Source: Lentisphaerota bacterium (lineage in GTDB: Bacteria; Verrucomicrobiota; Kiritimatiellia; RFP12; JAAYLN01). From it: a stretch of 57,269 nucleotides of DNA. Below are positions 4,908 through 55,397 of the stretch, one piece after another. The DNA lies in contig JAAYLN010000204.1 in assembly GCA_012521875.1 (NCBI GenBank), forward strand, positions 1-57,269, written 5' to 3'. Positions within the stretch are counted from its first letter, which is position 1. Each line of letters begins with the position of its first letter. Made by a program: the position numbers and the translations under genes. The notes beneath the pieces were generated by a model. The model was not told where the DNA came from. It ran no database searches and was given only the letters and a program-made list of their open reading frames with translations.

Positions 4908-5100
4908 CGGACGAGCAGACGCTCGTCCCTCCCGGTGCTGCACTTGGCGGTATTTGCGGTGCCCTGTGCGCGGCTCGCCGGGACGGCTCGCCCTACCCTT
5001 CATGTGCTGGTGCGGGCACTTTCTCTGGCGCGGCTTCTGGCGGACGAGCAGACGCTCGTCCCTCCCGGTGCTGCGATCTTGGCGGTATTGGCAGTGCCCG
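4908..5100 (+). repeat. Element D (GGACGAGC-agac-GCTCGTCC hairpin module and flank), 1.5 tandem copies
   Basis: Hairpin at 4909-4928 and again at 5042-5061. The flank aligns with 19818-19950, and partly with 50243-50300 and 18990-19040. Confidence 0.75.
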
Positions 5101-5234
5101 GCGGTAGGCGGGGCGGTTTCGCATTGATTCGTCCATTCGCGGCTCCCCTTGGCGCTCTTGGCGTCTTGGCGGTGTATTACTCGCGTGGCGGCACGCTACT
5201 CACGCCAGCCAAACTTTAGAACTTTAGAACTTCA

Positions 5235-6305
5235 TCACCTGGCTTCCTGGCGGTTCAAACCCCTTCCCACCGTCCCCGCCAGCAGCCCGCAGGCGGCGCC
5301 GATATCGGCACCGCCGCTGTAGCGGCGCGCCACGGGTGCCCGCACCCGGCGGCGCAGGGAGTCGCGAAAGGCATTGCGCTCCGCCTCGTCCGGCGGCAGG
5401 AAGACCCCGTCGGGATCATTTACGTCTATCAGGTCTATACGCACGGGCAGGTCGCCGATCCAGTCGGCCAATTGCCGCGCATCCTCGTCGCGGGTGTTGA
5501 AACCGGCAATCATGACCCAGGCGAGCGTGACACGCACGCCAAGGGCGGCGCAGTAGCCGGCAAGGGCATCGCGCAGTTCATCCAGCGGATAGGTCGCCGC
5601 CCCGGGCATGATGGAGCGGCGCCGCCCGGGGTCGGCCGAGGTCAGCGAGACCACGAGGCGGTAGGGCTGCCGCTCGGCGCTGAAGCGCCGGATGGCCGGC
5701 ACAATGCCCGCCGTCGAGAAGCTGATGGCACGGGCGGCGATGGCGAGCCCCGAGGGCTCCGACATGATCTGCGCCGCAGTCAGCGCGGCCTCGTAGTTCA
5801 GAAAGGGCTCGCCCATGCCCATGAAGACCACGCCGCGCACCGGACTCGACGAGGCCTGCGCGACACGGATAACCTGGTCGACGATCTACCAGGTTGCCAG
5901 ATCGCGCTGCCAGCCAAGACGACCCGTGCGGCAGAAGGCACAGCCCAGACTGCAACCGGCCTGGCTGCTGACGCAGACGACGGTACGTTCCAGGGGAGTA
6001 CCGTGATAGAGCGGGATGCCGACACTCTCGAAAACCTCGGGCCCGTCACCTCGCAGCAGCAGACGCCGGAAGCCATCACGCGGCGAGACCGTCTGGCCCA
6101 GGCAGGTCAGTTCGGGGATGCGGGAGACGGACGCCACGCGTTCCAGCAGGGCGGCGGAGAGATCGGAACGGTCGAAGGGCAGAGTGCCGCGCCGCAGCAC
6201 GGAAGCCTGGATGCGCCGCGCCATCGAGGGAGTGACGCCCAGCGGTGCCAGCGCCTGGTATAGCGCGCCGGAAGGCAGTTGCTTGAGGTTGATGGTATCG
6301 CTCAT
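5235..6305 (-). pseudogene. rlmN: RlmN/Cfr-family radical-SAM rRNA/tRNA methyltransferase interrupted by an in-frame TAG
   Basis: GCSLGCAFCRTG (CxxxCxxC) ... RDLATW-TAG-IVDQV ... FMGMGEPFLN ... both halves in one frame. The stop at 5886-5888 lies where the family has a conserved Glu (GAG). Confidence 0.8.
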
Positions 6306-6366
6306 GGGAAGCTCAAATGCGGGCTGGCTCCTGGACTAAGGCAGCTCTGCCGCTTGCCCTCCCGCC

Positions 6367-6595
6367 TTCGACAAGGTGTAGGGACAAAGTGTGGGGACGA
6401 AGCGTATCCGACAAAGCGTGGGGACAAAGCGTGGGGACAAGGTGTAAGTGCGAAGCACCCACTCTAAACCCTTTCTTAAACTCACTCTTAATCGGCACAC
6501 TTACTCCACCCGCTTAATCCTTCACGTTCGACAATGATGGGACAAATGGGACGAATGAGACGAAGGGGGACAGAAGGGAGTGGAGACAAGGTGTA
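6367..6595 (-). repeat. TTAAG/CTTTGTC composite element, copy T2 (reverse), plus a degenerate GGGAC(A/G)A array
   Basis: GACAAAG/GACGAAG units at 6367-6445. GTGCGAAGCAC hairpin. Reverse TTAAG module at 6455-6520. 10-nt-period GGGACAAATG/GGACGAATGA units at 6531-6595. Confidence 0.85.
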
Positions 6596-6603
6596 TCTCT
6601 GAC

Positions 6604-6657
6604 CCATTCCAACTGCCACTGCCTACTGCCACTGCCGCCGCCCTGCAGGGCAGCGGC
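6604..6657 (+). repeat. (ACTGCC)n hexamer/heptamer array ending in a GC hairpin
   Basis: CCATTCCAACTGCCACTGCCTACTGCCACTGCC, then an imperfect 11-bp palindrome centred on TGCA. Same module at 7778-7812, 20588-20651 and 33452-33485. Confidence 0.85.
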
Positions 6658-6660
6658 AAT

Positions 6661-6812
6661 ACAGGTCTGAAACACCCCATCCCAATCCGCGAAATCCTTA
6701 GCTAAATCCCGCCGCGTAGCGGCCATCCAAAAAAATCCTGTAAATCCTGCACATCCTGAAATCCTGTCAAAAAAACGGAGCAGCTCCGGAAAATCCTGAA
6801 AATCGTGTCTCT
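6661..6812. repeat. Element C (AATCCTG array element)
   Basis: AAATCCTGTAAATCCTGCACATCCTGAAATCCTGTCAAAAAAA. Aligns by eye as an inverted copy of 37140-37275. Confidence 0.75.
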
Positions 6813-6841
6813 CGCCTGTTCCAGCCGCCCCACCGGGGCGG

Positions 6842-7273
6842 CTAGGCCTGCTCGGAGTCGAGCACCATGCGGTAGTGCTTGAGGAAGCAGTTGATGACGT
6901 CCCCGGAATTGATCTCCTCGAGCAGGGTGAGGGTGGGCGTATCGCGCAGGACGCTCTCGGTCTTGACGAGGCGCAGTCCCTTGCGCAGGCGCACCTCGGC
7001 GTAGGGCACCAGTCCGTTGGGCACGGAGCGCTTGAGGATGCGGAAGGCGATCTCCTCGACATCCCCGTAGCGCACCACAAGCTGCATGGCGGCGGGCAAT
7101 GTCCGGATCTGGGCATCGCGCCCGTGCCGTTCGAGCTCGGTGGCGAGTTCATTCAGCGCGGGGCCGGCCACATTCTGCAGGAATTCATCGAAGAGGGCAT
7201 TCTCCTGCTCGGCACGGCTTGCGCGCGTGCGTCTCTCTAAAATACCGCTAAGTTCTTTCCGCCAGTCCGCCAT
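6842..7273 (-). CDS. Hypothetical protein (143 aa)
   Basis: ORF with ATG at 7273 (MADWRKELSGILERR...). Balanced, protein-like composition with no recognisable motif. GC hairpin 6824-6842 overlaps the stop. Confidence 0.55.
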   Translation of the reverse strand: MADWRKELSGILERRTRASRAEQENALFDEFLQNVAGPALNELATELERHGRDAQIRTLPAAMQLVVRYGDVEEIAFRILKRSVPNGLVPYAEVRLRKGLRLVKTESVLRDTPTLTLLEEINSGDVINCFLKHYRMVLDSEQA

Positions 7274-7812: not shown

Positions 7813-10800
7813 CTACCGCCGCCGCCCGCGGCGGGCGGAGCCGAGCGCCAGGCGCAGCACTATCCCCGCGCCCGCAAACACCAGCAGCAGCGGCCAGTAG
7901 CCCAGCAGCCGCATCCATGCCGGACGCCGCTGCGCCTCGAAGACCACCCGCAGCGTACCGCCGCCAGTGTTGAGCAGGGCGCGGCTCAGGCAGATCTCGC
8001 GGCCATGCTCGGGCATGGCGATGCGGATCGCCGTCGCCGCCGAGGCCGCCTGCACCTGCTGCTCGACCATCTTGTCGGCCACGCGCTCGAGGTTGTCGCG
8101 GTCGGCGGCATCAAGCTGTTCCTCGACCTGCCGCACGTAGCGCTCGTCGAAGTTGCCGTTGTTCCAGCCGACCTGCGCCTGCGGCGCGCCCTCGTCGTAG
8201 ATGTTCTTCTCGGCGCGCAGCGCCTGGCGGCGGTTGACCAGTCCCATCTTGACCTGCTGGCGCACCACGTTGCGGAACTGGACGCGGGCGTCCTCGTTGA
8301 GCGCCTGCTCGCCCTGCGAGAGGTTGACCGCCTGCTGCAGCGCGTGGCGCGCATCGAGCTGTCGGCCGGCCTTGAGCAGGGTATCGAGCGACTGCAGGTT
8401 GCCGCGGGCCGCCGTCAGGCTGGCCGCCTGCGCCTGCTGTACCGCCGTCTCGTAGGCCGATTTGCCGAAGGAGCGCAGCATGTCGCTGTCCACAAGATCG
8501 AGGTCGCCGCCGCGCAGCCGCCAGCGGTACTCCGCCGGCACGAAGAGGCGCCACTGGATATCGCGCAGCGGCAGGTCGGGCAGACGCAGCGCCTGCAGCT
8601 CGCGGCATCCGTCCAGCCCCGCCTCCGGCAGGGCATCGGCATAGACCAGCGTGACGTGCGCCGGCTCCTCGCGCGCGACACCCTCGAGCGCGATGCTGAG
8701 CGTCTCGCCGCCGGCTCCCTTCTCGCGCGCCACAGGCGCCTCGCCGCCGTTGACCAGCGCCGACCAGAGCCGGTTGGACGGGCCCGGCAGGATCACGCGC
8801 AGATGGCGCAGGCTGCCCGGCTGCAGCGTGATCGTCGCCTGCGTCAGCAGCCGCCCGCTGCCGGAGAGCACGGTCACCAGGCGCACCTGCCTGACCTGTG
8901 CCGGCAGTACCGCCGCCGCGGCATGGCGCACCACCGAAAGCTCCAAACGGTAGTCGGGACGCAGCACGCGGTAGCAGCGCAGGGCGCCGGAGAGGTCGCC
9001 GGCACCGAAGCTGTCCGGCAACGCGCGGGCATCCTCGGGCTTCAACCCTGCCGGCTCGCCGCGCGGCTCCACCTGCACGCGGCCGCCGCCGGTAATCACC
9101 AGAAAGCCCGACTGGCGCGCCGTATCCAGCGGCTCGAACGGGCGGATGACCACCCCGCCGCCGGCCGGATCGTAGGGCTCCTGGTACTGACAGACCAGGC
9201 TGAAGCTGTCCTCGACCTTGCCGTGCAGCTCGATCTCCCAGATGCGCCCAGTGCCGTTCGAGACGGCGGCCGGCACATCGTCCAGCGGCCGCACGCGGGC
9301 GATGCCGCGGCCGCTCACCGTCACCGGCGCCTCGGCGACGGGGACGCGCACGCGGAAGACCTTGACCCCGGCATTCTCGATCCGGTAGCGCGCATGGATG
9401 CGGTGCAGCAGCATCCCCTCGGCCAGATCGACGCAGTGCAGCACCTCGGGCTTGAGCACCGGCGCCAGCACCTCGGTTTGCAGCCCGATCTGCCAGCCCG
9501 GCCGGAGCAGGTCGAAATGCAGCGCTCCGGCGGGGGCGCGCGTCTCGTCGCCGGGCCGGCGCGCCACGGCACCCTCGATCTGCCCGGTCACCAGCTTGAC
9601 GCCGCGCTCGGCCGCGACGGAGATCCGTCCCGAATGGCGCAGCGCCCCCCGCACCTGCACCCTCGGCACAGTGATCTGCGGCGGCACCCCGCGCTGCTGT
9701 TGCGATAGCACGAGGTTGAGCGAGGTCGTGTCCTGTACGCGGCGCGTCAGGAACACCTCCACCCCCTGCTGCCCGCCGCGCCGCGAGTCGTCCCAGTGGC
9801 TCACGTCGCGCCCGGTCAGCGACTCGATCTCGTAGCCCTCGGGCAGATCGAGATGCAGGGCGAAGAGTCCCGCCTTGGCCACGCTCACCTCCAGCGTGCC
9901 GCTCAGGATCGTGCGCTCGTCGCCGATGCTGAAGAGGCTGGCCTCGCTGACGCGGATTTCCGGCTGCACCTCCTCGGCGTGCAGGGCGATCCGCACGGCG
10001 GCGGGGTCGTCGTAGCGGAAGGCGCGGCGCAGCGTGGTGACGGACGACGCGCGCTCGGCCGCGAAGGCCGCCAGGCTGAAGTCGTCGGTATCTATGGGCG
10101 ACACTCCCTGCACATCGCCGATCCGCGCCAGGATGTCCTCGGGCGCCGCGAGGGCGATGCGTCCGCGCTGGCGCCCGACGCCGATGGCCGCGGGCACGCC
10201 GAGCGTGCCGTCATACGGCAGACCGCCGCAGGGCGACTGGAGTATCACGGTCAGCGTCAGTGTGCCGCTCGCCGGACGCGACAGTGTCATCCCCAGGCTC
10301 CGGTCGGCGGGATCGAAGCGCCAGGTGGCCAGCAACGGCCCCGCCACCGCGGTCACGGTCATGCCGGCGGGCGCGGTCAACGCGAACTCGCGCGTCTCGC
10401 CCTGCACGATCGTGAAGCTTACGAGCGACTGCATCTCGATGACCCCGGGGCGCAGGCGCGCGAGGCTGGCCACATCGGCATAGACCACGGCGGTCTCCAT
10501 CCGCGTATCGCGCGCGCGCGGTTTCCAGGCTATCTCAACCCAGTCGGTGGCCGTCAGGGTCGCCTCCACGCGTGTCGCGCCGTCGGCGCTCTCCAGATCG
10601 AGGCTCGCGGCAGAAGGAATCTCCACCTCCATGTCGGTGGTGGGAATCGTCAGCGCGAGGCGGTTGATCAGGTTCGACGGCCAGGGCAGCAGCAGCCTCC
10701 GTCCGCCGTCGCGCTCCCAGACCTGCTCGCGGGTCGTGATTTCAAGGCGGTGCTCGCCGGCCTTGAGGATGTCGAGCTGCACCCCGCTCCTGTGCGATAC

Positions 10801-13800
10801 CAGCCGCAGGCGCGCGGCATCGGCACGGAAGCCGGCCACGACGCTGCCGGGCGGCAGCAGCAGCCGCCTGCCGGGCGCATCGGCACGGAAGACCAGCGTC
10901 CAGCGCACCTCCGCCACCGGCTCGGCCTCCGGCGTGGCCGGTGGCGCCTCGATTTCCACCTCCAGCCGGTCGGCGGCCAGCGCGGGCGGCAGCGCAACGG
11001 CCGCGGGGAGCGCGGGCCGGACTTGCGGCCCGTCCGGCGCGACCGCTGCCGGTGCCTCGGTACGGGGAGCCGCCTCCGTCTCCGCCTTGAGCGTACCGAA
11101 CCCCGCCAGCAGCAGCGACGCCAGCGCGGCAAGCAGGATGAGGAAGAGCGGCGAAATCGAGCCTTCGGTTGAGGTGTCGCCGGGCGCGGCGTCGTCTGCG
11201 GGGGCGGCGTCCGGTTCCGGTTCGGGCACGAGGGGGGGCGGCGGTACGCGGGATGTCTTGCCCTTGCGCTCCCGCCGTTCACGTGGCGACCGGTTATTTA
11301 GGCGGGCGATACCGCGCGCAATGGCCGCGATCAGGGCTACCGCCGTGCCGACGGTACCGGCTATGACCACACCAATGAGCCCGGGTTGCGTCTGGGCCGC
11401 CGCCAGCGCCAGCAGGGTCAGCGCCAGCGCAAGCCAGAAGCGGCGGCGCAGCACGAGACCGATCAGCAGGGCCGCCAGCCCCGCCGCGCCCGCGACCACC
11501 ATCCGCCGCGGCGAGCCGCCGGCCATCCAGCTTGGCAGCAGTTCGACCGTCACGCGGAGACTCTCCTCGTCGGCGAGGTTGGCGGTACGGTAGAAGCTGA
11601 CGGTACGCGCGCGGCGAGCGCAGGGCGAGGCCCACGGCCAGCGTCCGGCCGTTCCGGCCTCCGGCGTCAGATTGCCGCCCGCGGCACCGATGGCGCGGTT
11701 GTCGTCGGCCGTCACCTCCCAGCGGGTGAAGGTGGCGGGGGTGTCGCTCAGTTGCGGCGCCGTGAGCCCGACGCGCAGCGGACGCTGCCGCACCGCCGGG
11801 GCGGGCTGCGCATAGACAATCTCGATCGGCACGGCCTGGTTGGGATCACGCAGCCGCGCCACCGGAATCAGCAGGCGCTCGCCGTCCTGCTGGGCGGGCA
11901 GGTCGCGCGCGTTGGCCTCCAGTCCCTGGCGCACGCTCCAGAGCTTGGCGCCGGCGGGCAGGCGCGCCTCGAGGTACTGGCGCGAGGCGTTCTTGACGTG
12001 GCAGGTGGCGCGTGTGACCGACTCGCCGTCGCGCCCGATGCGCGAGGAGAGCGCGAAGTAGTCAACAACCTGATCAATCGGCCGCTGGGTCTCGAGGGTC
12101 GTGACCCGCAGCGTGGCGGCATGCGGACGGCGCGTGTACTTGTAGACGGCCAGCAGGGGGGCGGTGACGGTGGCGGCGTAGCCGGCCGGCAGCTCGTCGC
12201 GCGGGATGCGGATCAGGCCGGGCGGCAGGGGAGCGGTCTCCTCGAGGCGCAGGCCGGCACCGGAGGCCACGGCCATGAAGCCCATCTCGCTGGCGGTACC
12301 GACCGCCTCGATCCCCCCGATCCGCAGCTCCGCGCCGTCGTAGCCGAGCGGCTGGTCGTAGGTGATCAGCAGGGTGGTGTGGCCCATGGTGCGGCTGGCA
12401 AGCTGCACGCGGCAGAGGTCGTTGCTGCGCGACCAGTTGTCGATCCCCGCGCCGACGATCTCCAGGCTCGCGCCCGCGTCCGGAACGCGGAAGGCGAGCG
12501 TCTGCACCGGCGCGCCGCTGATGTGGCAGTTGACCGCCGCCGAGACATAGACCACACCCGCGCCGAGCGAGAGCAGATGGAAAATCTCGGTATGGATGGC
12601 CGATTGCGCCCATTCGAGCCCCAGATCGAGCTTCCAGCCCGGCTCGCGGAAGCGGTAGGCGAGCTGCGCCCCCTCGGCGCGGAAGGGGGTCGAGCCGGTA
12701 TGCACATCGCGCAGGTTCTCGGCGGCGCGCGGCACGAGGCGGATACCGCGCTCGGCCGCCGCCACGATGCAGCCGCGCTGCGTGCGCGCCCCGGGCAGCG
12801 ACACCGAGGGTACAGTGAAGGCGTCGCGCGCCAGCCCCAGCGGCAGCTCCATGCGCAGGTTCAGCAGCGTCTGGCCCTCGACCGGCTGACGGAACGGAAC
12901 GAGGATCTCGCGCCGGCCACCCTCCGCCCGGACATCCACATCGCTCTCGATAACCGGCTTGCCGGTCACGCCGATCAGCGTCCAGCGCGGATCGGCATCC
13001 GCCACGAGCTTCACCTCGCGCACCGGCGCGTCGCGCACGTCGAGCCGGATGGCGGCGTCGAGCGCCAGCCGTCCCTCGGCAACGTTGACCAGCAGGTCGA
13101 TCTCGCCGCTCAGCGCGGGGACAACGTGATCCGCGCCCAGCGTCAGCGCGTAGGGCAGCGCGGCGTACTGGTAGGTGAAGACGCTGCGGGTGGGTAGCGT
13201 GCGCGCATAGCCATCGCGCAGCGGTGCCGGTTGCGCGAAGGCAGCCTGGTCGATCTGCGTGATGCCGCTCGCCGCCGCAACCTGCAGCTTGACGGCGCTG
13301 TCCGTCCCGAGCAGCAACTGCCCGCCGGCGCGGATCACGCCCTGCGGCGCGAGCACCGGCAGCCCGAGCGTGCAGGGAAAGGCCGGCAGGGCACGGTCGT
13401 ACTCGACCTGCAGGCGGTACTCCCCGCGCTGCGGACGCCCCAGCGTGATGCGCAGGCGCGGTGCGGCGGATTCGGTACGGTCGATCCGCCAGTCCTGGAT
13501 GTCGGCACCGGTAACCCGCAGGATATTGACGTCCGGCAGGGTGAGGCTCAGCTCGCTCATCTGACCCTGCGCGATGCTGTAGGCGTAGATCGAGTCGAAC
13601 CGCAGCATGCCGGGACTGGCCGTGACAATCGTGTTGATGTCGCACGTGGCGACCAGTTCGGAGGCCACGCGGCGGATTTCCGGCTTCCAGAAGACCTCGA
13701 AGAGGGGATTTGTGTCGAGGTGTACCGTTACGGTATCGCGCCCGTCCGCGTCCGGCTGCCGCTGCAGACCGCGTCCGCCGGGGAAGCGGATCTCGAGACC

Positions 13801-14205
13801 AGGGCGGTCGGCCGTGACGGCGACGGAGCGTACCGGCAGCACGGGCACGCGGAACTGCGCCTGGCGCCAGTCGCCGTCGGCCACGGTACGCACGGCGAAG
13901 GCGAGGCGCACGCGGCCCTCGCCCGCGCGCCAGCCGCCGGTGCGCACGATGCGGAAGGCATCCCCGTCACGGCGCAGCTCGGTATGCCGCGGCAACCTGG
14001 CCTCGGTCAGGGCGACCTCGCCACGCAGCACCTCGAGACTCTCGCCCCGCGCCAGATCGGCATAACCGATCTCCAGCTCGAAGCGGATATTCTCGCCATC
14101 AATCCTGCCTTTCAGGTCAAAACTCCGCGGCACTACCGCCGCTAACAACGCAACGTGCGCAAAAAGCAGGAACAGCAGACTTATATGCGTTCTACATGTT
14201 TTCAT
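7813..14205 (-). CDS. Giant (2130 aa) membrane protein: two paralogous beta-rich modules of about 900 aa, a central TM cluster, and a C-terminal coiled coil plus TM anchor
   Basis: Uninterrupted ORF. N-terminal signal MKTCRTHISLLFLLFAHVALLAAV. GGAG Shine-Dalgarno 7-11 nt upstream. Hydrophobic cluster at aa 902-966 and 1017-1037. C-terminal WMRLLGYWPLLLVFAGAGIVL. No family name assignable without a search. Confidence 0.85.
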   Translation of the reverse strand: MKTCRTHISLLFLLFAHVALLAAVVPRSFDLKGRIDGENIRFELEIGYADLARGESLEVLRGEVALTEARLPRHTELRRDGDAFRIVRTGGWRAGEGRVRLAFAVRTVADGDWRQAQFRVPVLPVRSVAVTADRPGLEIRFPGGRGLQRQPDADGRDTVTVHLDTNPLFEVFWKPEIRRVASELVATCDINTIVTASPGMLRFDSIYAYSIAQGQMSELSLTLPDVNILRVTGADIQDWRIDRTESAAPRLRITLGRPQRGEYRLQVEYDRALPAFPCTLGLPVLAPQGVIRAGGQLLLGTDSAVKLQVAAASGITQIDQAAFAQPAPLRDGYARTLPTRSVFTYQYAALPYALTLGADHVVPALSGEIDLLVNVAEGRLALDAAIRLDVRDAPVREVKLVADADPRWTLIGVTGKPVIESDVDVRAEGGRREILVPFRQPVEGQTLLNLRMELPLGLARDAFTVPSVSLPGARTQRGCIVAAAERGIRLVPRAAENLRDVHTGSTPFRAEGAQLAYRFREPGWKLDLGLEWAQSAIHTEIFHLLSLGAGVVYVSAAVNCHISGAPVQTLAFRVPDAGASLEIVGAGIDNWSRSNDLCRVQLASRTMGHTTLLITYDQPLGYDGAELRIGGIEAVGTASEMGFMAVASGAGLRLEETAPLPPGLIRIPRDELPAGYAATVTAPLLAVYKYTRRPHAATLRVTTLETQRPIDQVVDYFALSSRIGRDGESVTRATCHVKNASRQYLEARLPAGAKLWSVRQGLEANARDLPAQQDGERLLIPVARLRDPNQAVPIEIVYAQPAPAVRQRPLRVGLTAPQLSDTPATFTRWEVTADDNRAIGAAGGNLTPEAGTAGRWPWASPCARRARTVSFYRTANLADEESLRVTVELLPSWMAGGSPRRMVVAGAAGLAALLIGLVLRRRFWLALALTLLALAAAQTQPGLIGVVIAGTVGTAVALIAAIARGIARLNNRSPRERRERKGKTSRVPPPPLVPEPEPDAAPADDAAPGDTSTEGSISPLFLILLAALASLLLAGFGTLKAETEAAPRTEAPAAVAPDGPQVRPALPAAVALPPALAADRLEVEIEAPPATPEAEPVAEVRWTLVFRADAPGRRLLLPPGSVVAGFRADAARLRLVSHRSGVQLDILKAGEHRLEITTREQVWERDGGRRLLLPWPSNLINRLALTIPTTDMEVEIPSAASLDLESADGATRVEATLTATDWVEIAWKPRARDTRMETAVVYADVASLARLRPGVIEMQSLVSFTIVQGETREFALTAPAGMTVTAVAGPLLATWRFDPADRSLGMTLSRPASGTLTLTVILQSPCGGLPYDGTLGVPAAIGVGRQRGRIALAAPEDILARIGDVQGVSPIDTDDFSLAAFAAERASSVTTLRRAFRYDDPAAVRIALHAEEVQPEIRVSEASLFSIGDERTILSGTLEVSVAKAGLFALHLDLPEGYEIESLTGRDVSHWDDSRRGGQQGVEVFLTRRVQDTTSLNLVLSQQQRGVPPQITVPRVQVRGALRHSGRISVAAERGVKLVTGQIEGAVARRPGDETRAPAGALHFDLLRPGWQIGLQTEVLAPVLKPEVLHCVDLAEGMLLHRIHARYRIENAGVKVFRVRVPVAEAPVTVSGRGIARVRPLDDVPAAVSNGTGRIWEIELHGKVEDSFSLVCQYQEPYDPAGGGVVIRPFEPLDTARQSGFLVITGGGRVQVEPRGEPAGLKPEDARALPDSFGAGDLSGALRCYRVLRPDYRLELSVVRHAAAAVLPAQVRQVRLVTVLSGSGRLLTQATITLQPGSLRHLRVILPGPSNRLWSALVNGGEAPVAREKGAGGETLSIALEGVAREEPAHVTLVYADALPEAGLDGCRELQALRLPDLPLRDIQWRLFVPAEYRWRLRGGDLDLVDSDMLRSFGKSAYETAVQQAQAASLTAARGNLQSLDTLLKAGRQLDARHALQQAVNLSQGEQALNEDARVQFRNVVRQQVKMGLVNRRQALRAEKNIYDEGAPQAQVGWNNGNFDERYVRQVEEQLDAADRDNLERVADKMVEQQVQAASAATAIRIAMPEHGREICLSRALLNTGGGTLRVVFEAQRRPAWMRLLGYWPLLLVFAGAGIVLRLALGSARRGRRR

Positions 14206-14232
14206 TGGCGACTCCTGTCTACGTAGCCTTGA

Positions 14233-14692
14233 TTAATCAGGAACTCAAGAACTCATGAAATTTGTTTTGCTATCTCCCGGCCAACCCGCTTGACGGTGAG
14301 CGGCATGGCGGCAAAGTTGAGTAGAAGTCCGGAATCGACATTGACGGCATTCATATAGGAACGGACTATGGAAAAATGTATGGGCTCGAAAGCCTTGATC
14401 GCCTTGAGCTCCACGACCACGCGAGTATCGACCAGCAAATCGAGACGATGTTCCCCAATGGGAAATCCACGATAAGTCAGATGGACAACCTTTTGTCTTT
14501 CAAACGGGATGTTCTGAGAGGTCAACTGGATACAAAGCGCCTCTTCGCAAATCGATTCCAGGAAGCCCGGCCCCAGAGCTTTATGAACAGCAATGGCTGC
14601 CGCTATGATCTCCGCCGTGATCTCCTTGTCCGGCATTTCGAGCCGATCCTCTTCCATAAGCATCCTTCCTGAGTTCATGAGTTCCTGATTAA
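14233..14692 (-). mobile_element. Miniature cassette: a single GxxExxY-family ORF bounded by a 22-bp inverted repeat (21/22), inserted in an operon junction
   Basis: Left arm TTAATCAGGAACTCAAGAACTC (14233-14254). The right-arm reverse complement is TTAATCAGGAACTCATGAACTC (14671-14692). Both termini carry TTAA. Removing it leaves a 34-nt gap between the anti-sigma stop and the giant-gene start. Confidence 0.55.
14253..14678 (-). CDS. GxxExxY-family protein (PD-(D/E)XK nuclease fold superfamily)
   Basis: EIIAAAIAVHKALGPGFLESICEEALCIQL..IPFERQ..GEHRLDLLVDTRVVVELKAIKAF..SIVRSYMNAVN..GLLLNF matches the family layout. The motif position is G-F-L-E-S-I-C, so Tyr is replaced by Cys. Confidence 0.8.
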   Translation of the reverse strand: MNSGRMLMEEDRLEMPDKEITAEIIAAAIAVHKALGPGFLESICEEALCIQLTSQNIPFERQKVVHLTYRGFPIGEHRLDLLVDTRVVVELKAIKAFEPIHFSIVRSYMNAVNVDSGLLLNFAAMPLTVKRVGREIAKQIS

Positions 14693-14699
14693 AAAGACC

Positions 14700-17306
14700 T
14701 TAATCACTAATAGCCCCCGCCAATTCCACTAATCTCACCAATTCCGCCACTCGTGTATCGAGTTTCATCTCCAGAGCCACCGGGCGCAGCAGACGTGATA
14801 CATCGGCGAAGCGGCTGCCGGCGGCATGGGGACTGCGGCGCAGCAATTCGGCAAATTCGGCGGCGCAGGCCGCCAGCCGCAGCCCGGGCCGCGCGGCCTC
14901 GATGCGCGGTACGAAATCGCGCGGCAGGATCGGACGCTCGATCTCCTCGATGGCCTGCGTATCAACCCGGCGGTAGCGCACCCGCACCCACCCCAGCGGC
15001 TGATCGCGCGGTGCCGGCTCGACGCGCTCGAACTCGTAGAGCGCGGTGACCGACTGCCCCGAGCCGACCTCGCCGGCATCCACTGTATCATCGCGGAACT
15101 GCTCCTTCGTGAGGGCGCGGTTCTCGTAGCCAAGCTGGCGGTAGCGGCTCACGGACGCGGGCGACCATTCCACCTGGATCTTGACATCCATGGCGATGGT
15201 ATTGAGCGTGGCGGCCAGATCGTCCACGAAGGCGCGCCGCACCTCGGCGGGCGAGTCGAGGAAACGGTAGGAGCCATCGCCGCGGTTGGCCAGTTCCTCC
15301 AGCATGCGGTCGTTGTAGGCGCCGCGTCCGACGCCATAGACGGTGCAGGTGATCCCCTGGCGGCGGTAGGCGTCGATCCGCGCGAGAATATCGGCGGCGG
15401 AGTCGGTGCCGAGGTTGGCCACGCCGTCGGAGATCAGGATGACGCGGTTCTCGCCGCCGGGGACGAAGGCGCGCGCGGCCTGCGCGTAGGCCATGCGCAT
15501 GCCCTCCTCCAGATTGGTCGAGCCGCGGCACTGCAGACGGTCGAAGGCGGCAAGGATGGCGGCACGCTCGGTGGCCGGCGTCGCATCGAGCAGCAGGCGC
15601 GCGTGGTCATCGAAGGCGATCAGTTGCAGGCGGTCGTGCGGGGCGAGCTGCTCCAGCAGCAGCGCCAGCGCCCCGCGCGCGAGGCCGATGCGGTCGGGCT
15701 GGGCCATCGAGCCCGAGGCGTCGACGAGGAAGGTCAGCATGGCCGGGCGCTGCTCCTCGCGGCCGAGGCGGCGTCCCTTGACCCCGATACGCACGAGTTC
15801 GAGCCCGGCGCCGAAGGGGGCGGGCGCGCCCTCGACATAGACGCGGAAGACGGCGGTATCGGGAGCGCGGTCGCCATAGTCGAAGGCGTTGACGATCTCC
15901 TCGGTACGGACCGCCTCGGGATCGGGCAGCGCGCGGTTCTCGAGCGACTGGCGCGTGCGGGTATAAGAGGCGGTATCAACATCTATGGCGAAGGTCGAGA
16001 AGGGATTGGCACGCGTCTCGACGAAGGGGTGGTGCGCGGCGGGGACACGCGCGGCGGGCGGCGCTTCATCCTTAGCCTTCATTCGCTGGATGGTTTGTTC
16101 CTCGGGCAGCAATCCGGTTTCCTCACGCTCCTCGGCGTCAGCCGCCGGCTCTGTCGGCGGCACGGCCTGGCGCGTACCGCCAGCCACAACCTGCCCGCTA
16201 GCATGGCCGACGGCGGCCGGGGAATCCGTCTGCTCCGAAAGGATGACTTCCACGGCTATGTCATCGTCTTTGGACGCAGTGTCTTTGCTCGTCTCCGATG
16301 CACCCCCTGCCGCTACCATCATTCCCCTTATTTTCGCCCTGCGAGGTGTGCCGTAGATGTTGCGCAGGATGACCGGCGATTTGACTTGCATGGCAGTATC
16401 ACGAGCCTGCGGTTTGGGGCTTGCCATTGCGCGGGGGGCCGGGGGTAGCGGCGGTTGTGGCGGAGCAGCAGCCACGGCGCTTTCGGGCGCGGGTTCAAGC
16501 CGACGGGAACGCACCGGCATCCGCGGCCCAGGGGCGGCAGCCATTTCAGGCGCGGGGGCAGGCGCGGCCGGCTTGCGAGGGGCATCGGCTCTAGTTACGC
16601 CTTCATCAAGGCAGACTTCCACGACTATGTCGTCGTCTGTGTACGAGGTGTCTTTGCGCCCCGCCGACGCACCAGTCTCTCTGCTCTCTGCCCCTCCACT
16701 AGCGCCGTCGGCCCAGCCATGCATGATGAGCGGTGATTTGATCTGCATGACAGTCTCAAATGCCTGCGGTTTGGGACTTAGCGGCTCGGGTGGCGGCCGG
16801 GGAGAGAGGGAGAAATCGGGTGTGAAGGCCGGAACTTCCGGCTGGCGCATAGCATCGACAGCGGGGGGCGCCACCTCTTCGAGTTCGGCGACCTCCTCCA
16901 GACATTCCACAGAATCAGCGTAAGGATAATACATGGGGGCTCTTGCCGCGCGTTTGGCGCGATAGGAGAAGGCGGGCATAAGCGCCATCCAGGCAAAGCC
17001 CACCACCAGTGCCAGCGAGGCCGCCAGGCGGAGCATGGGGTGGGTTCCGCGCCACCAGCGGCGGAAGCGGCTCTGGTAGGGTGTCGCGAGTACCTGGCGG
17101 CGCCTGGACGGGTAGAGCCGCAGCGGTTTGGCGGGTTCCTCCGACAGCCCCTGCCGCAGGGCGGCGACGACCGGTTCGAGCTCGCCTGCCAGAGCGCGGC
17201 AGGCGCCGCACTCCGCCACGTGGCGGCGGATGGTCTCGGCCTCGGCCGGCGGGAGGTCGCCCAGCAGCCAGGAGGTCAGGCGGTCTTCATAGGCGCAGTG
17301 CTTCAT
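14700..17306 (-). CDS. Anti-sigma factor (zf-HC2) with one TM, a duplicated Pro/Ala-rich linker and a C-terminal YfbK-like VWA domain
   Basis: MKHCAYEDRLTSWLLGDL..IRRHVAECGACRAL (H-x3-C-x2-C). TM LRLAASLALVVGFAWMALM. NPFSTFAIDVDTASY. MIDAS motif FLVDASGSM. ATGA start/stop overlap with the sigma gene at 17303-17306. Confidence 0.85.
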   Translation of the reverse strand: MKHCAYEDRLTSWLLGDLPPAEAETIRRHVAECGACRALAGELEPVVAALRQGLSEEPAKPLRLYPSRRRQVLATPYQSRFRRWWRGTHPMLRLAASLALVVGFAWMALMPAFSYRAKRAARAPMYYPYADSVECLEEVAELEEVAPPAVDAMRQPEVPAFTPDFSLSPRPPPEPLSPKPQAFETVMQIKSPLIMHGWADGASGGAESRETGASAGRKDTSYTDDDIVVEVCLDEGVTRADAPRKPAAPAPAPEMAAAPGPRMPVRSRRLEPAPESAVAAAPPQPPLPPAPRAMASPKPQARDTAMQVKSPVILRNIYGTPRRAKIRGMMVAAGGASETSKDTASKDDDIAVEVILSEQTDSPAAVGHASGQVVAGGTRQAVPPTEPAADAEEREETGLLPEEQTIQRMKAKDEAPPAARVPAAHHPFVETRANPFSTFAIDVDTASYTRTRQSLENRALPDPEAVRTEEIVNAFDYGDRAPDTAVFRVYVEGAPAPFGAGLELVRIGVKGRRLGREEQRPAMLTFLVDASGSMAQPDRIGLARGALALLLEQLAPHDRLQLIAFDDHARLLLDATPATERAAILAAFDRLQCRGSTNLEEGMRMAYAQAARAFVPGGENRVILISDGVANLGTDSAADILARIDAYRRQGITCTVYGVGRGAYNDRMLEELANRGDGSYRFLDSPAEVRRAFVDDLAATLNTIAMDVKIQVEWSPASVSRYRQLGYENRALTKEQFRDDTVDAGEVGSGQSVTALYEFERVEPAPRDQPLGWVRVRYRRVDTQAIEEIERPILPRDFVPRIEAARPGLRLAACAAEFAELLRRSPHAAGSRFADVSRLLRPVALEMKLDTRVAELVRLVELAGAISD

Positions 17307-17884
17307 ACGCCCTCCTGTTTTTGGATGGTGGCGGCGAGTTTCCTGACGGCCTGGTGCAGCAGGGTGCCGACATAGCCGCTGGAGCGGCCGGTCACGTCGG
17401 CAATCTCCGCATAGCTCAGCCCCTCCTGCAGGCGTAAAAGGATCACCTGGCGCTCGGGCAGGCTGAGCGTGTCGAGGGAGCGCATGACGAGGGCGACGCG
17501 CTCGTCGGGCTGCGGGTCGCAGTGGACGCCGTCGGGGCAGCCGATGGCGGCATCGGCGGCCCGGAGGTCGTGGTGACGGCGGCGGCGCTCCTCGGCGCGG
17601 ATCAGATCGACGGCCTCGTTGTGCGTGACGCGGTAGAGCCAGGCCTTGAGGCGCGCATCGGCCTGCATGCCCTCCGGCCACTGCCGGAAGAGCTTGATAA
17701 AGGCGTTCTGTACTACATCCTGGGCCATGACGGTGTTCCGCAGCAGCCGGGCGGCATAGCGCAGCAAAGGCGTCTCAAAGGCGGCCACGACGGCTTCAAG
17801 CCGTTCATTGCGCCTCACGCGTGGAGACTTGTCCTGCGCTGGGTTATCAACCATTTCCGCTCCCGGGATCGAGGAACCTTTCAT
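17303..17884 (-). CDS. ECF-type RNA polymerase sigma-70 factor
   Basis: Region 2 LLRYAARLL..AQDVVQNAFIKLF..WLYRVTHNEAVDLIR. Region 4 LPERQVILLRLQEGLSYAEIADVTGRSSGYVGTLLHQAVRKL. Confidence 0.9.
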   Translation of the reverse strand: MKGSSIPGAEMVDNPAQDKSPRVRRNERLEAVVAAFETPLLRYAARLLRNTVMAQDVVQNAFIKLFRQWPEGMQADARLKAWLYRVTHNEAVDLIRAEERRRRHHDLRAADAAIGCPDGVHCDPQPDERVALVMRSLDTLSLPERQVILLRLQEGLSYAEIADVTGRSSGYVGTLLHQAVRKLAATIQKQEGV

Positions 17885-17935: not shown

Positions 17936-18370
17936 CTAAGGCATGACCCGCAAGCCGGCTGCGGCGGCCAGAGCCTTCTGCCGCGTGTCGAAGGAAAGAA
18001 AGAGCGTGGCGCCGAGCGCGGCGGCGGTAGCAACATGCAGGATATCTGCGGCACGTGTTCCGAGGGTTTCAGTGTGAGCCGCACTTAGCTCCTCGGCAAC
18101 GTCGTACACCTCCGCCCATGCAACAGGGGTCTCCGCTAACACACCTGAACGCTTGTCCATCTCGATGGCAGCAAGGACAGCCTGGCATTCAGGCGCCGTA
18201 ATCTCTCTGCGGAAACACGCCAACCGAACGGCGTTACGAGCCTCATGGCGTTGAAACGGCGTGTAGATCAGCGGGGTTTCGAACTCCATGACAAGCGTCT
18301 GAGCGCGAGCGCTGTTAGTATCGCGGCCATACAGCGAGACCAGGAAGCTCGTGTCGGCGTAGATTACCAC
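17936..18370 (-). CDS. vapC: PIN-domain toxin (VapC-like)
   Basis: GTG start overlaps the antitoxin stop. VIYADTSFLVSLY...ADILHVATAAALGATLFLSFDTRQ carries the typical PIN acidic positions. Confidence 0.8.
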   Translation of the reverse strand: MVIYADTSFLVSLYGRDTNSARAQTLVMEFETPLIYTPFQRHEARNAVRLACFRREITAPECQAVLAAIEMDKRSGVLAETPVAWAEVYDVAEELSAAHTETLGTRAADILHVATAAALGATLFLSFDTRQKALAAAAGLRVMP

Positions 18371-18612
18371 CTGCCCTGCTCCCGTTCTTCCAGCACGATA
18401 TCGGTGAAGCTTGTCGTCTTCTCCCCGAAGATCGCCTTCGCACGCGCAGCGAAATCGGGCATCCTGACCTTGGCCGGAGGTTGCGGGCGGGGCGGCAGGA
18501 TGCGTGCCACGGGGCGCTTGCGGTTGAGCACCGTGATCTCCTCGCCCGCAGCAACCCAAGCCAGCACGGAGCCGAGGTCGTGGCGCACTTGTCGAATGGT
18601 GACGGTTTTCAT
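18364..18612 (-). CDS. Phd/YefM-type antitoxin
   Basis: MKTVTIRQVRHDLGSVLAWVAAGEEITVLNRKRPVARILP. A 7-nt overlap with vapC. An alternative ATG lies at 18621. Confidence 0.75.
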   Translation of the reverse strand: MKTVTIRQVRHDLGSVLAWVAAGEEITVLNRKRPVARILPPRPQPPAKVRMPDFAARAKAIFGEKTTSFTDIVLEEREQGRW

Positions 18613-19244: not shown

Positions 19245-19355
19245 CTGGAGAGAACGTTCCCCCATGCTTGACATCGTGCATCCGTCCGGGCAAACTGGGC
19301 ACATGGGCAATGTGTTCCATCACAAAGCCGGAACCAGTGCTATAGTGGGGTTTGC

Positions 19356-19703
19356 ATGGTGACAATCGCATCCATTTTACGACTAACTCTAGCCTCGCTG
19401 CTCTTTATTGTGGCATGGTTGCCAAAACCATCCGTCATAAGCCCTGATAAACCCCTTATTGTTGGCGAGAACGTGGTAAATTTAAGGGTTGAATATGGGG
19501 TGCTGTGGAAATATGCGCACCATAATCTGGCTGTTGTAGCAGTGGGAGACCGTTCAACGCCGATTGTTGACAAATCATTAGGGGTGGGCGTGATGACTTT
19601 TGAGCCGTCGGGGCTGCTCAAGTCGATATTGCTTACTGTTGTTGGGGTTTTGCTAATCGTAGGCGGAAAACGGCCTGGCCACTTGAAGAAACCAGTTGCA
19701 TAG
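19356..19703 (+). CDS. Orphan small membrane protein (115 aa) in a locally AT-richer patch
   Basis: Hydrophobic N-terminus (IASILRLTLASLLFIVAWL) and C-terminus (LLKSILLTVVGVLLIVGG). Visibly lower GC than the surroundings. No recognisable family. The overlapping minus-strand ORF looks less protein-like. Confidence 0.4.
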   Translation: MVTIASILRLTLASLLFIVAWLPKPSVISPDKPLIVGENVVNLRVEYGVLWKYAHHNLAVVAVGDRSTPIVDKSLGVGVMTFEPSGLLKSILLTVVGVLLIVGGKRPGHLKKPVA

Positions 19704-20759: not shown

Positions 20760-22877
20760 TTACTTATCCTCGGCGGCGGCCTTGTCGCGGTCGCGCATGG
20801 CCTCGCGGCGGCTGAGCTTGACGCGGCCGCGGTCGTCGATGGCGATGACCTTGACCCAGATCTTGTCGCCGATGTTGCAGACATCCTCGACCGCGCGGAT
20901 GCGCGTATCGGCCAGCTCGCTGATGTGGCAGAGGCCGTCCTGGCCGGGGAGAATCTCGACGAAGGCGCCGAAATCCTTGATGCCGGTGACGGTACCCTCG
21001 TAGATGCGGCCCTCCTCGGGCTCCATCGAGATGGCCTCGACCTCGCGCACGGCCATCGCCATCGCCTCGCCGTTGGTGGCGAAGATCGAGACGGTGCCGT
21101 CGTCATCGATGTCGATCTGCGCGCCCGTGAGATCGGTGATGCGGCGGATGTTCTTGCCGCCGGGGCCGATCAGGCCGCCAATCTTGTCGACGGGGATGAC
21201 GAGCGTGGTGATGCGCGGCGCATGCGGCGAGAGCTCGCCGCGGGGCTCGGCGATGATGCCCTCCATGAAGTCGAGGATCGCCAGGCGGCCTGCGCGGGTC
21301 TGGCGCAGCGCCTCCTCGACGATGTCCCAGGTGAGGCCGCGGATCTTGAGGTCGACCTGGAAGCCGGTGATGCCCTTGCGGGTGCCGGAGACCTTGAAGT
21401 CCATGTCGCCGCAGTGATCCTCGGCGCCGAGGATGTCGGTGACGACGACCTTTTTAGACTGGTCGGCACTGGTGAAGAGTCCGGCTGAGATGCCCGCCAC
21501 GGGGGCCTTGATGGGCACACCGGCATCCATCAGCGCGAGCGTGCCGACGCAGACGCTGGCCATCGAGGAGGAGCCGTTGGAGCCCGTGATATCCGAGACG
21601 ACGCGGATGGTGTAGGGATAGTCGGTGGGGATGACCGGGCGCAGGGAGCGCTCGGCCAGGGCACCGTGGCCGATCTCGCGGCGGCCGGGGCCGGTGATGC
21701 GGCGCACCTCGCCGACCGAGTAGGGCGGGAAGTTGTAGTGCAGCATGAAGCGCTTCTCCTTCTCGCCGCCGGCGATGGCGTCCAGCTCCTGGACATCCTG
21801 CCCGGTGCCGAGGGTGACGGTACCGAGCGACTGCGTCTCGCCGCGGTTGAAGAGCGCCGAGCCGTGGGCGCGCGGGATCAGGCCGACCTGCGCGGCAAGG
21901 GGGCGCACCTCCTCCGCGGCGCGTCCGTCGATGCGTGCGCCGTGGTCGAGCACGTTGCTGCGGACAGTCTCGATCTCCAGCGCGTCGAAGAGGCGCATGA
22001 AGTCGTTATCCGTGGAGTCGGGCGAGGCCTCGGCCAGCTTGGCGCGCAACGCCGTCTTGATCTCGGTGACCTTCGACTGGCGCTCGAGCTTGCCGGGAAT
22101 GCGCAGGGCGGCGCGCAGCTCGTCGCCGGCGGCCTGACGCAGGATGTCCATCAGCTCGTTGCTGGGCGGCGTCTCGACGATGACCTTGTCGGGGAGGCCG
22201 AGCTTGCGGCGCAGCTCGATCTGCAGGTCGACCAGCTTGACGACCTCCTCCTGGGCGGCCTTCATGGCGGCCAGGAAATCCTCGTCGGCGATCTCGTCGG
22301 CTCCGCCCTCCATCATCAGGAAGCGGTCACGCGTGCCGGCGTACATCAGGTCGAGGTCGCTCTTCTCGCGCTGCTCGTTGGTCGGGTTGATGACCCAGGC
22401 ACCGTCGATGCGTCCGATGCGCACGGCGGCGATCGGCCCGTAGAAGGGGATTTCGGAGAGGTGCAGCGAGGCGCTGGCGGCGATCACGCTCAGGACGTCG
22501 GGATCATTCTCCCCGTCGGCGGAGAGCAGCATGTTCATGATCTGGACGTCGTTGTAGTAGCCCTCGGGGAAGAGGGGGCGGATCGGGCGGTCGGTCAGGC
22601 GGGCGATGAGCGTCTCGCGGTCGCTCGGCCGGGACTCGCGCTTGAAGTATCCGCCGGGAAAGCGTCCGGCGGCGTAGTACTTCTCGCGGTAGTCGACCTG
22701 GAGGGGGAAGTAGTCGATACCCTCACGCGGGGTATCGGTATTGCAGACCGTCGACAGGAGAATGGTGTCGGCCAGCCGCACGGTGACGGAGCCCGCAGCC
22801 TGTAGAGCGAGCAGCCCGGTCTCGATGGTGATCGTTTGGCCGCCGATTTCGGCGGAAACGGAGGTTACCTGATTCAT
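20760..22877 (-). CDS. pnp: Polyribonucleotide nucleotidyltransferase (PNPase)
   Basis: 705 aa. Two RNase PH-like halves, then KH and S1 domains ([33 protein letters not shown]). Lies directly downstream of rpsO, as is typical. Confidence 0.95.
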
Positions 22878-37084: not shown

Positions 37085-37139
37085 TGGTCGCCGGTCGCCA
37101 GTTGGAACAGGCCAGAGACGCCACTTTGTCCTCGCTGCA

Positions 37140-37275
37140 TTAATTTGACAGGATTTCCTGCTTCGCAGGCGCATATTAACATGATTAACATGATTTTCAG
37201 GATTTTTTTGGCCGCTACGCGGCAGGATTTAGCTACGGATTGCGCGGATTGGTGTAGGGTGTCTCAGACTAGTCG
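37140..37275. repeat. Element C, inverted copy of 6661-6812
   Basis: GACAGGATTTCCTG...ATTTTCAGGATTTTTTTGGCCGCTACGCGGCAGGATTTAGCTACGGATTGCGCGGATTGG is the reverse complement, with indels, of the copy near 6690-6775. Confidence 0.75.
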
Positions 37276-37286
37276 GGTCAGAGCCC

Positions 37287-55250: not shown

Positions 55251-55397
55251 GGCGGTTGTGCGGCCGCCTTCGGGAGGCGGCCGGGGGTCAATAGGGTTCG
55301 GCCGGAATAGACGGTGCAATAGTGCGGGATAATGCCGCGAAAGTCAAACGCTAACGGTAACTAAATGTGATCGGCTAGTGACAGGGGGAGCAACAAT

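Follow-up and report, generated by a model that had tools for sequence, protein, structure and literature searches.

Introduction

Intervening sequences (IVSs) that carry an open reading frame (ORF) within 23S ribosomal RNA (rRNA) genes have been described in Coxiella, Leptospira, and Brucella, and their cargo is the S23p, or four-helix-bundle, protein (PF05635). The Coxiella IVS is 428-444 nt long and is closed by a 28-bp stem with one mismatch and a bulge; tandem heptamers stand ahead of its ORF, and the stem is cut by RNase III, which removes the AG-rich ribosome-binding site (PMC4990558). Such elements are regarded as selfish, and their functionality and origin "remain unclear" (PMC4990558). 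Here we describe a 460-bp segment for which these IVSs are the closest described entity. It lies in a 57,269-nucleotide contig of a Lentisphaerota bacterium (assembly GCA_012521875.1, contig JAAYLN010000204.1)—this whole stretch is called the window throughout. We read the segment as a self-contained, horizontally mobile mini-cassette with an IVS-like anatomy: a nuclease gene of the GxxExxY family in the loop of an inverted repeat whose arms are built of octamers, seated in a spacer of an extracytoplasmic function (ECF) sigma factor operon. We give this reading a probability of roughly 0.72. The hairpin bracketing extends across the GxxExxY family, and the pattern—an IVS-like hairpin cassette in a messenger RNA (mRNA) operon, with a nuclease as cargo and octamer-repeat arms—is apparently undescribed.

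Comparison with Described Systems

The likeness to rRNA IVSs is one of size (about 430-460 nt for IVSs, 460 nt here), of a 27-28-bp terminal stem with one or two defects, and of internal order: short tandem repeats stand before an ORF that occupies the loop, and an AG-rich ribosome-binding site is part of the stem or adjoins it. Both kinds of element also sit inside a transcribed unit, and a cassette with IVS-type cargo occupies the orthologous junction in a relative (locus L087, described below). The window cassette thus has the terminal stem of about 20-30 bp that encloses an IVS and the small ORF in its loop, but not the location in a helix of 23S or 16S rRNA. It further differs in lying between protein-coding genes, in carrying a PD-(D/E)XK cargo, and in having arms made of 8-nt tandem units.

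Two further kinds of inverted-repeat system are comparable. In REPIN/RAYT systems, the gene of a REP-associated tyrosine transposase is flanked by inverted REP (repetitive extragenic palindromic) sequences; as in the cassettes described here, a single gene stands between inverted short repeats, ORF-less hairpins also occur, and there is no target duplication. The cassette differs from them in that its enzyme is a PD-(D/E)XK nuclease rather than an HUH/Y1 transposase, and in that its arms repeat an 8-mer in tandem, where REP sequences are palindromes. Correia and ERIC-type (enterobacterial repetitive intergenic consensus) elements are 100-150 bp long, contain no ORF, make TA duplications, and give an RNA hairpin that is cut by RNase III or RNase E. 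They would share with the proposed cassette the character of an inverted-repeat element co-transcribed with host genes, its arms forming a nuclease-sensitive RNA hairpin; the window cassette, in contrast, carries a gene and has no duplication.

Free-standing homing endonuclease genes (of the PD-(D/E)XK type, e.g., I-Ssp6803I) are likewise small nuclease genes between host genes, with presence or absence at one site and an exchange tract that reaches into the flank. GxxExxY members, however, occur at many different sites and are bracketed by inverted repeats, as homing endonuclease genes are not, and on both counts the cassette would be an atypical homing-endonuclease gene. Integron gene cassettes resemble it in having a single promoterless ORF, an imperfect palindrome, and expression from an upstream promoter; this reading was tried and rejected, as there is no attC core, integrase, or array, and the palindrome halves lie on both sides of the ORF rather than downstream of it.

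Anatomy of the Cassette

The features of the cassette and of the operon that holds it are as follows.

14233-14692, minus strand: whole mini-cassette (5' arm, ribosome-binding site, GxxExxY ORF, 3' arm), 460 bp, with bounds taken from the repeat
14666-14692, minus strand: 5' arm (in gene orientation), TTAATCAGGAACTCATGAACTCAGGAA, of tandem 8-nt units (GGAACTCA), from the repeat finder and a 22-mer search
14233-14259, minus strand: 3' arm, TTCATGAGTTCTTGAGTTCCTGATTAA, covering the last two codons and the TGA stop, from the repeat finder and a reading of the sequence
14663-14670, minus strand: Shine-Dalgarno-like AGGAAGGA (GGAAGG at 14669-14664), half of it within the 5' arm, 6 nt ahead of the Met8 ATG
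14253-14657, minus strand: gene of the GxxExxY-family PD-(D/E)XK nuclease, 134 aa from Met8, or 141 aa from the in-frame ATG at 14678
17306-17884, minus strand: ECF-type sigma factor, first gene of the operon (Sigma70_r2 and Sigma70_r4_2 matches)
14700-17306, minus strand: anti-sigma (zf-HC2) protein with vWF_A, VWA, and YfbK_C domains, 868 aa (here the VWA gene), its stop 7 nt before the cassette
7813-14205, minus strand: giant gene, 2130 aa, no family match, with AGGAG at 14216-14212 and its ATG 27 nt past the cassette

A preliminary description of this DNA, made from the sequence without database searches, had reported a 22-bp inverted repeat around the GxxExxY ORF. The repeat is real and longer than was claimed: the repeat finder gives arms of 27 nt each, 25/27 complementary (93%), with 406 nt between them. 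The 22-mer of the arm has exactly two matches in the window, which are the two arms, and no match in any of 100 dinucleotide shuffles. The repeat is also identical in the orthologous copy of locus L001, a 1.3-kb ENA contig with the same cassette at the same junction.

Read along the minus strand, the VWA stop TAA (14702-14700) is followed by 7 nt, the 5' arm, GGA, ATGCTT, the ATG at 14657, and the ORF. The TGA (14255-14253) lies inside the 3' arm, bearing out the earlier remark that one arm overlaps the stop codon, and 27 nt containing AGGAG then lead to the giant-gene ATG (14205). When the cassette (14233-14692) is excised in silico, 7 + 27 = 34 nt are left between the VWA stop (14700-14702) and the giant-gene ATG; this leftover spacer contains the AGGAG at 14216-14212, so the 34-nt remainder with a Shine-Dalgarno sequence is as first described. 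The GC content of the cassette is 0.50, versus 0.65 for the window and about 0.70 for the local flanks. TTAA stands at both ends of the cassette in the window/L001 copy, as had been pointed out, but it does not generalize: the ends of other cassettes read AATC[AT]GGAA or TAAGGAA. No second GxxExxY gene was found in the window, and an Rfam scan of 13900-15000 returned only a sub-threshold miRNA match and hence no known RNA family.

The Encoded GxxExxY Protein and Its Start

The ORF at 14253-14678 (minus strand) matches TIGR04256 (E 1.8e-34, 118.6 bits, cut-off 35) and PF13366, or PDDEXK_3 (E 1.7e-33, 115.9 bits, cut-off 22); in a database search the GxxExxY family comprised 12,429 clusters at 50% identity. 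By homology the window protein is a family member, yet a motif variant: the G-x-x-E-x-x-Y signature reads GFLESIC, with Tyr37 replaced by Cys. This substitution, noted from the start, is genuine—Tyr37 is at least 90% conserved in an alignment of 39 homologues, and the 95%-identical orthologue of L001 (P0001) keeps it, the change being TAC to TGC relative to L001. The same alignment shows E34, E38, H70, R71, E83, and K85 without variation and D73 with at least 90% conservation; the PD-(D/E)XK core residues D73, E83, and K85 (LDLLV...VELK) are present in the window protein. An AlphaFold model with a pLDDT of 90.1 gives Foldseek matches at a TM of about 0.5 to LHK-Exo, Cas4 SSO0001, MGME1, and lambda exonuclease. 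The retained catalytic residues, and a predicted fold similar to those of RecB, Cas4, and lambda exonuclease, give the protein the look of a functional nuclease.

Other searches returned little. A sequence search of the PDB with the window protein gave no relative, so similarity there is at the fold level only, and a protein look-up held no exact record of the sequence itself. PADLOC and PHROGs had no match for either the GxxExxY or the four-helix-bundle cargo, which gives no support for a known defence or phage role; a scan of viral contigs with the GxxExxY family alignment returned no confirmed relative, and the window protein matched no transposase family.

The preliminary description placed the start ATG inside an arm. 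The real start is probably Met8 (14657) and not the arm ATG at 14678, because most of about 2,700 homologues are 133-134 aa long and align from the Met8 equivalent, the gene call of the L001 orthologue begins at Met8, and GGAAGG stands 6 nt before this ATG. The 5' arm would therefore carry part of the Shine-Dalgarno sequence rather than the start codon. Database gene calls for many family members begin inside the 5' arm (P0004, P0007, P0011, P0050, P0059, P0102, and P0117), and spurious N-termini derived from the arm, such as MNLELRKSG and NQEIKKAGS, are translated GGAA-unit repeats. Tandem double GxxExxY domains, seen as two matched stretches, occur in proteins of 250-390 aa (P0245, P0253, P0260, P0262, P0275, and others).

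Insertion at a Recurrently Occupied Operon Junction

The C-terminus of the VWA protein was used as a scan query with one genome per species, giving 80 loci, mostly from Kiritimatiellia, Lentisphaerae, and other metagenome-assembled genomes of the Planctomycetes-Verrucomicrobia-Chlamydiae group. A GxxExxY gene follows the VWA stop in none of these 80 species-representative loci, whereas a homologue of the giant gene stands directly after the VWA gene in about 43 of them. Many relatives have cassette-free junctions with gaps as short as 2-40 nt: the spacer of L089 is TAG, 8 nt, and ATG, and those of L088, L114, L121, L125, L133, and L145 measure 12-40 nt. The cassette-free operon is the common arrangement among relatives and is therefore ancestral by parsimony. 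Judged by these loci, the cassette has been inserted in the short spacer that separates the VWA and giant genes, as was first proposed for this tight junction; the empty sites looked for in relatives exist, and the gene is not an ancestral, fixed member of the operon.

The junction has also been taken by other elements. Locus L005, a JGI (Joint Genome Institute) contig in which the VWA C-terminus is 89.5% and the giant-protein N-terminus 83% identical to those of the window, holds a diverged GxxExxY cassette; its protein is 83% identical to that of the window, and its arms, AATCGGGAACTCAGGAAAGCAGGAAGG and CCTTCCTGATTTCCTGAGTTCCAGATT, are different. In L087 (VWA 76%), the junction is occupied by a gene for a 121-aa four-helix-bundle protein that matches TIGR02436 (2.8e-22) and PF05635 ("23S rRNA-intervening sequence protein", 6.9e-13). 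This gene (6475-6840; region 6440-6882) lies inside a perfect 21-nt inverted repeat with a 401-nt loop. L141 (VWA 73%) carries a 541-nt non-coding insert at 6336-6876, for which no ORF and no family match were found; its outer arms (AACCGCAGAATAT / ATTCTGCGGTT) are related to those of L087, and inside it two further inverted repeats are nested, one of them with 55-nt arms in which GGTTAAG / CTTAACC is frequent. A short solo hairpin is found at the junction of L085 (VWA 84%). In more distant relatives with enlarged gaps (L105, L110, L113, L127, and L131), and likewise in L097 and L156, ORF-less hairpins with arms of tandem 7-9-nt units follow the VWA stop:

L105, 5092-5926: ORF-less hairpin after the VWA stop
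L110, 6337-6483: ORF-less hairpin after the VWA stop
L113, 2704-2787: ORF-less hairpin after the VWA stop
L127, 4960-5071: ORF-less hairpin after the VWA stop
L131, 6354-6742: ORF-less hairpin after the VWA stop
L097, 6363-6463: ORF-less hairpin after the VWA stop
L156, 6467-6538: ORF-less hairpin after the VWA stop

The VWA/giant-gene junction has thus been taken repeatedly by differing hairpin elements. Across 704 kb of VWA loci, about 15 of the 38 strong short-loop hairpins lie within about 200 nt past the VWA stop—a clustering that may mean either that an RNA signal between the cistrons is under selection or that elements land preferentially at this site.

Two side observations concern this junction. 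In L087 a GGAA-type, arm-like remnant, TTATCAGGAGACAGGAAAGCC, lies just past the VWA stop. The closest species-representative relative, L086 (contig CAZYRQ010000477.1; VWA 93% identical), is on a contig that stops 48 codons ahead of the VWA stop, i.e., at an assembly break adjoining the junction; a repeat at this point would explain the break.

Evidence for Exchange between Hosts

Over the first 810 nt of the giant gene, the window, L001, and L005 share 82-85% nucleotide identity, and the three hosts are therefore about equally diverged. The cassette gene is 96.8% identical between the window and L001 and 84% identical in the two pairs that involve L005; synonymous codon differences between the window and L001 amount to 6/135 for the cassette, compared with 61/271 for the giant gene. 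With 96.8% identity in the cassette against 84% in the giant gene, the comparison indicates that the cassette was exchanged between diverged hosts, recently and at one site, after the hosts had diverged. Followed in 50-nt bins, identity between the window and L001 becomes high at the 5' arm, stays so through the cassette, and tails off about 100 nt beyond the 3' arm; L001 offers just 29 nt upstream of the 5' arm, with several mismatches, so the 5' boundary is placed on little sequence. L005 has no conserved counterpart to the roughly 100 nt that follow the 3' arm, and the similarity of the window and L001 there therefore reflects co-transfer, not constraint. Presence/absence polymorphism at the junction (the empty sites) and co-transfer of the flank (the tract of about 100 nt) together are behaviour of the homing type.

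Elsewhere, in metagenomes, cassette genes that are 88-90% identical in nucleotide sequence stand in flanks with no detectable homology (L045 versus L054/L055, and L062/L057 versus L076). Low GC content, recent exchange between diverged hosts, and related cassettes in unrelated contexts all agree with a selfish, horizontally moving unit, in keeping with the selfish cassette already voiced in the preliminary description.

The pstS locus of a freshwater population adds observations of its own. Between L165 and L175 the flanks are 95-98% identical and the cassette gene is 85% identical and mosaic: when L165 (4001-4405) is set against L175 (4001-4399), the 5' half is near-identical, the 3' half diverged, and the downstream repeats wholly different. 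In L165-L171 (e.g., L165:4405-4640; L169:1651-2096), a 70-nt unit is repeated in tandem downstream of the gene, in 2, 3, or 5 copies depending on the sample. The unit consists of the 5' arm, the ribosome-binding site, and a start-like ATG, making up a hypervariable repeat nest; in L166 the 3' arm is multiplied too. Identical copies of the proteins P0092 and P0104 were checked for differing contexts, and all of them stood at this same pstS locus in different samples, giving no evidence of recent transposition.

Hairpin Bracketing across the Family

From a metagenome scan came another 80 loci, whose GxxExxY genes share 50-85% identity with the query. To score bracketing, the 120 nt surrounding the start were compared with the 125 nt surrounding the stop, and the highest-scoring inverted repeat without gaps was taken. 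In 65 non-redundant cassettes the median is 18.5, and 46 of them score at least 15; 258 random intervals of equal length from the same loci have a median of 7, and none reaches 15 (Mann-Whitney p = 3.5e-32). Hairpin bracketing is family-wide.

What is shared is a design rather than a sequence. The arms differ between members, but in each an 8-nt unit is repeated in tandem two to four times and complemented downstream; examples of units, besides GGAACTCA of the window, are GGAAATCA, GGAAGGCA, GGAAGCCA, GAAACTCA, and CACGAAAG. Arm autocorrelation has its maximum at lag 8 on both sides, and in 49 of 60 cassettes it is the upstream arm that is rich in purines. The elements have a median length of 465 nt (interquartile range 450-487 nt), with medians of 16 nt from the end of the 5' arm to the start and 5 nt from the stop to the 3' arm. 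Cassette genes are lower in GC than their flanks in 41/41 loci, and neighbouring genes share their strand in about 70% of cases. The check proposed at first, whether other GxxExxY genes are flanked by the same repeat and TTAA, comes out positive for the bracket, which is common, although its arms share only the 8-nt design and TTAA is missing. Among 46 cassettes searched for target-site duplications, the adjacent direct repeat is 0 nt long in 29, 1 nt in 14, and 2 nt in 3. 

Four-helix-bundle genes are bracketed in the same way in 5/5 cases examined, and one of their arms, AACCGCAGATTGACGAATGATGA, accompanies the gene in four unrelated operons. Two loci deserve separate mention. In L191, two four-helix-bundle cassettes with different arm types (2993-3672 and 4966-5408) flank an HGD-D gene in a 2-hydroxyacyl-CoA dehydratase operon; the first has arms of 7-nt period (GGTGTCAGGTGTCGGG...), and this arm type recurs in the solo hairpin that L110 carries at its VWA junction. 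In L002, two tandem hairpins of about 60 nt (3685-3744 and 3768-3827) lie immediately upstream of a GxxExxY cassette and consist of the arms of that cassette joined, without an ORF.

Predicted RNA Stem and Proposed Mechanism

The arm duplex has a predicted free energy of -34.7 kcal/mol, or -41 kcal/mol with six more flanking pairs. In a 521-nt transcript, the pair probability is about 1.0 over the outer 22 bp, with one U-U mismatch, and the stem is present in the minimum-free-energy fold of the region (z = -2.35). The suggestion that an mRNA stem occludes the start codon is thus borne out in that a stem is strongly predicted, but the stem covers the ribosome-binding site and not the probable start.

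We propose that the cassette is transcribed with the operon and that its arms would pair in the transcript as a 22-27-bp duplex, hiding the ribosome-binding site of the cassette. By its size such a duplex would be an RNase III-type substrate, and, by analogy with the Coxiella IVS, the cassette RNA would probably be clipped from the operon mRNA. Clipping would keep expression of the nuclease low while the host genes are still expressed, and would separate the regulator and giant-gene transcripts. At the DNA level, the cassette would spread without target duplication, in a homing or recombination-like manner that re-uses the same site; this is preferred to DDE-type (Asp-Asp-Glu) transposition because target duplications are lacking, the junction is re-used by different cassettes, and the flank is co-converted. 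The encoded nuclease is the obvious but unproven agent of mobility.

Several results weigh against this reading. No 23S rRNA signature motifs occur in the 184 loci examined; with no rRNA-located locus, the link to rRNA IVSs rests on architecture and on the cargo family of L087. The window holds no other copy of the arm, no solo hairpin, and no RNase III gene. Family-wide, arm mismatches are split evenly between G:U (43) and A:C (43), with no sense-strand wobble bias; selection on the RNA stem is therefore not demonstrated, and the complementarity of the arms could be kept at the DNA level. We infer co-transcription with the operon because no sigma-70 promoter or intrinsic terminator was detected in the cassette, in a scan limited to sigma-70-type promoters. 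The differences between the window and L001 cassettes, 6 synonymous and 7 non-synonymous, are uninformative. Lacking the near-invariant Tyr, the window copy may be inactive, impaired, or decaying, and the four-helix-bundle cargo in the same bracket design means that the nuclease may not be the mobility enzyme at all.

Alternative Explanations

A possible alternative, to which we give some but clearly the lesser credence, reverses the roles of hairpin and gene. As in REPIN/RAYT systems, short tandem-unit hairpins would be primary, and GxxExxY nucleases and, separately, four-helix-bundle proteins would maintain or disperse them from the loop of one hairpin. ORF-less hairpins of the same arm design do exist: in L002 (3685-3827, two copies in tandem whose arms are those of the adjoining cassette), L130, and L093, where one arm type occurs twice within 4 kb, and at the VWA junction itself in L105, L110, L113, and L127. 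The arms of the L110 hairpin (GGTGTCAG units) match the arm type of an L191 four-helix-bundle cassette, the copy number of arm units differs between strains, and the missing target-site duplication is as in hairpin-directed, non-DDE mechanisms. The solo hairpins could equally be decayed cassettes, however; the arm of the window has no second copy in 57 kb, and the enzyme belongs to the PD-(D/E)XK nucleases rather than to the HUH/Y1 transposases.

It is improbable that the segment is a classical transposon with terminal inverted repeats (TIRs), or an element akin to miniature inverted-repeat transposable elements (MITEs), that inserts at TTAA and is moved by the encoded nuclease or by a transposase acting in trans. 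The preliminary description had offered a transposing element with TIRs as one option, and part of this stands: inverted repeats are present at the termini, TTAA ends can be read in the window copy, and related cassettes in unrelated contexts speak for mobility. The 46 cassettes mentioned above nevertheless have no adjoining direct repeats beyond the 0-2 nt counted there, TTAA is absent from the termini of other cassettes, the arms, made of tandem 8-nt units, vary widely across the family, and the protein matches no transposase family. Re-use of the junction by different cassettes also fits homing or recombination better than random transposition. Insertion into TTAA in the manner of Piggy-Bac was considered and rejected, since TTAA is not general.

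Slighter still is the chance that the cassette is a fixed regulatory feature, that is, a normal operon gene whose stem does no more than adjust how well it is translated or how stable the operon mRNA is. This reading would account for a strongly predicted stem over a ribosome-binding site, and the enrichment of hairpins past the VWA stop could be a selected processing or stability signal. It is contradicted by the gene's being missing from the junction in about 43 syntenic relatives; moreover, the GC content of the cassette is 20 points under that of the host, its divergence between the window and L001 is five times lower than that of the neighbouring host gene, different cargos occupy the same site, and the arms have no wobble bias. 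At most, regulation could persist as a secondary function for which the hairpin was exapted.

That the inverted repeat arose by chance or as a low-complexity by-product has nothing in its favour except the repetitive, GGAA-rich composition of the arms, and is refuted by the 0/100 shuffles, the 46/65 members versus 0/258 controls, and the identical repeat in L001.

Significance

The mobile mini-cassette thus remains our preferred reading. In the literature searched we found nothing on the genomic anatomy or function of GxxExxY genes, the superfamily survey listing PDDEXK_3 as "Unknown", and nothing on non-rRNA cassettes of the IVS protein family. The curator notes of TIGR04256 and TIGR02436 may already call both families multi-copy and rRNA-IVS-linked. 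Should GxxExxY genes as a rule be carried by an IVS-like hairpin cassette of about 465 nt that passes from one operon junction to another, a large family of "hypothetical" proteins would turn out to belong to a class of mobile elements.

More tentatively, and as a speculation we would not yet hold to, GxxExxY nucleases and four-helix-bundle IVS proteins may be cargos of one widespread, undescribed class of hairpin-bracketed mini-cassettes that insert into transcribed spacers, with rRNA IVSs as the rRNA-resident special case. The functional ends would be the arms of tandem 7-8-nt units: as a hairpin or cruciform in the DNA, they would be read by the encoded protein and would serve homing or exchange without duplication, and they would double as an RNase III site through which the element is cut out of the host transcript. 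Since one junction hosts either a nuclease or an IVS-protein cassette, the origin of rRNA intervening sequences, a decades-old question, would become testable; were the one-class reading true, these sequences would gain both an origin and a mobility mechanism.

There are practical consequences as well. Gene callers extend ORFs into the arms and assemblies tend to break at such repeats, so annotation stands to gain. On the host side, the regulators of the ECF-sigma operon would be set apart from its giant gene by a strong RNA duplex, and this may uncouple the expression of the two.

Other Features of the Window

Further short islands of low GC content (0.47-0.51) occur in the 65% GC window at 19300-19500, 37100-37300, and 55300-55500; the ORFs tested there gave no family match, and the islands have no GGAA-type arms. 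Directly upstream of the ECF-sigma operon lies a PIN-domain (VapC-like) gene (17939-18400, minus strand), and farther upstream a polynucleotide phosphorylase gene (20763-22877, minus strand).

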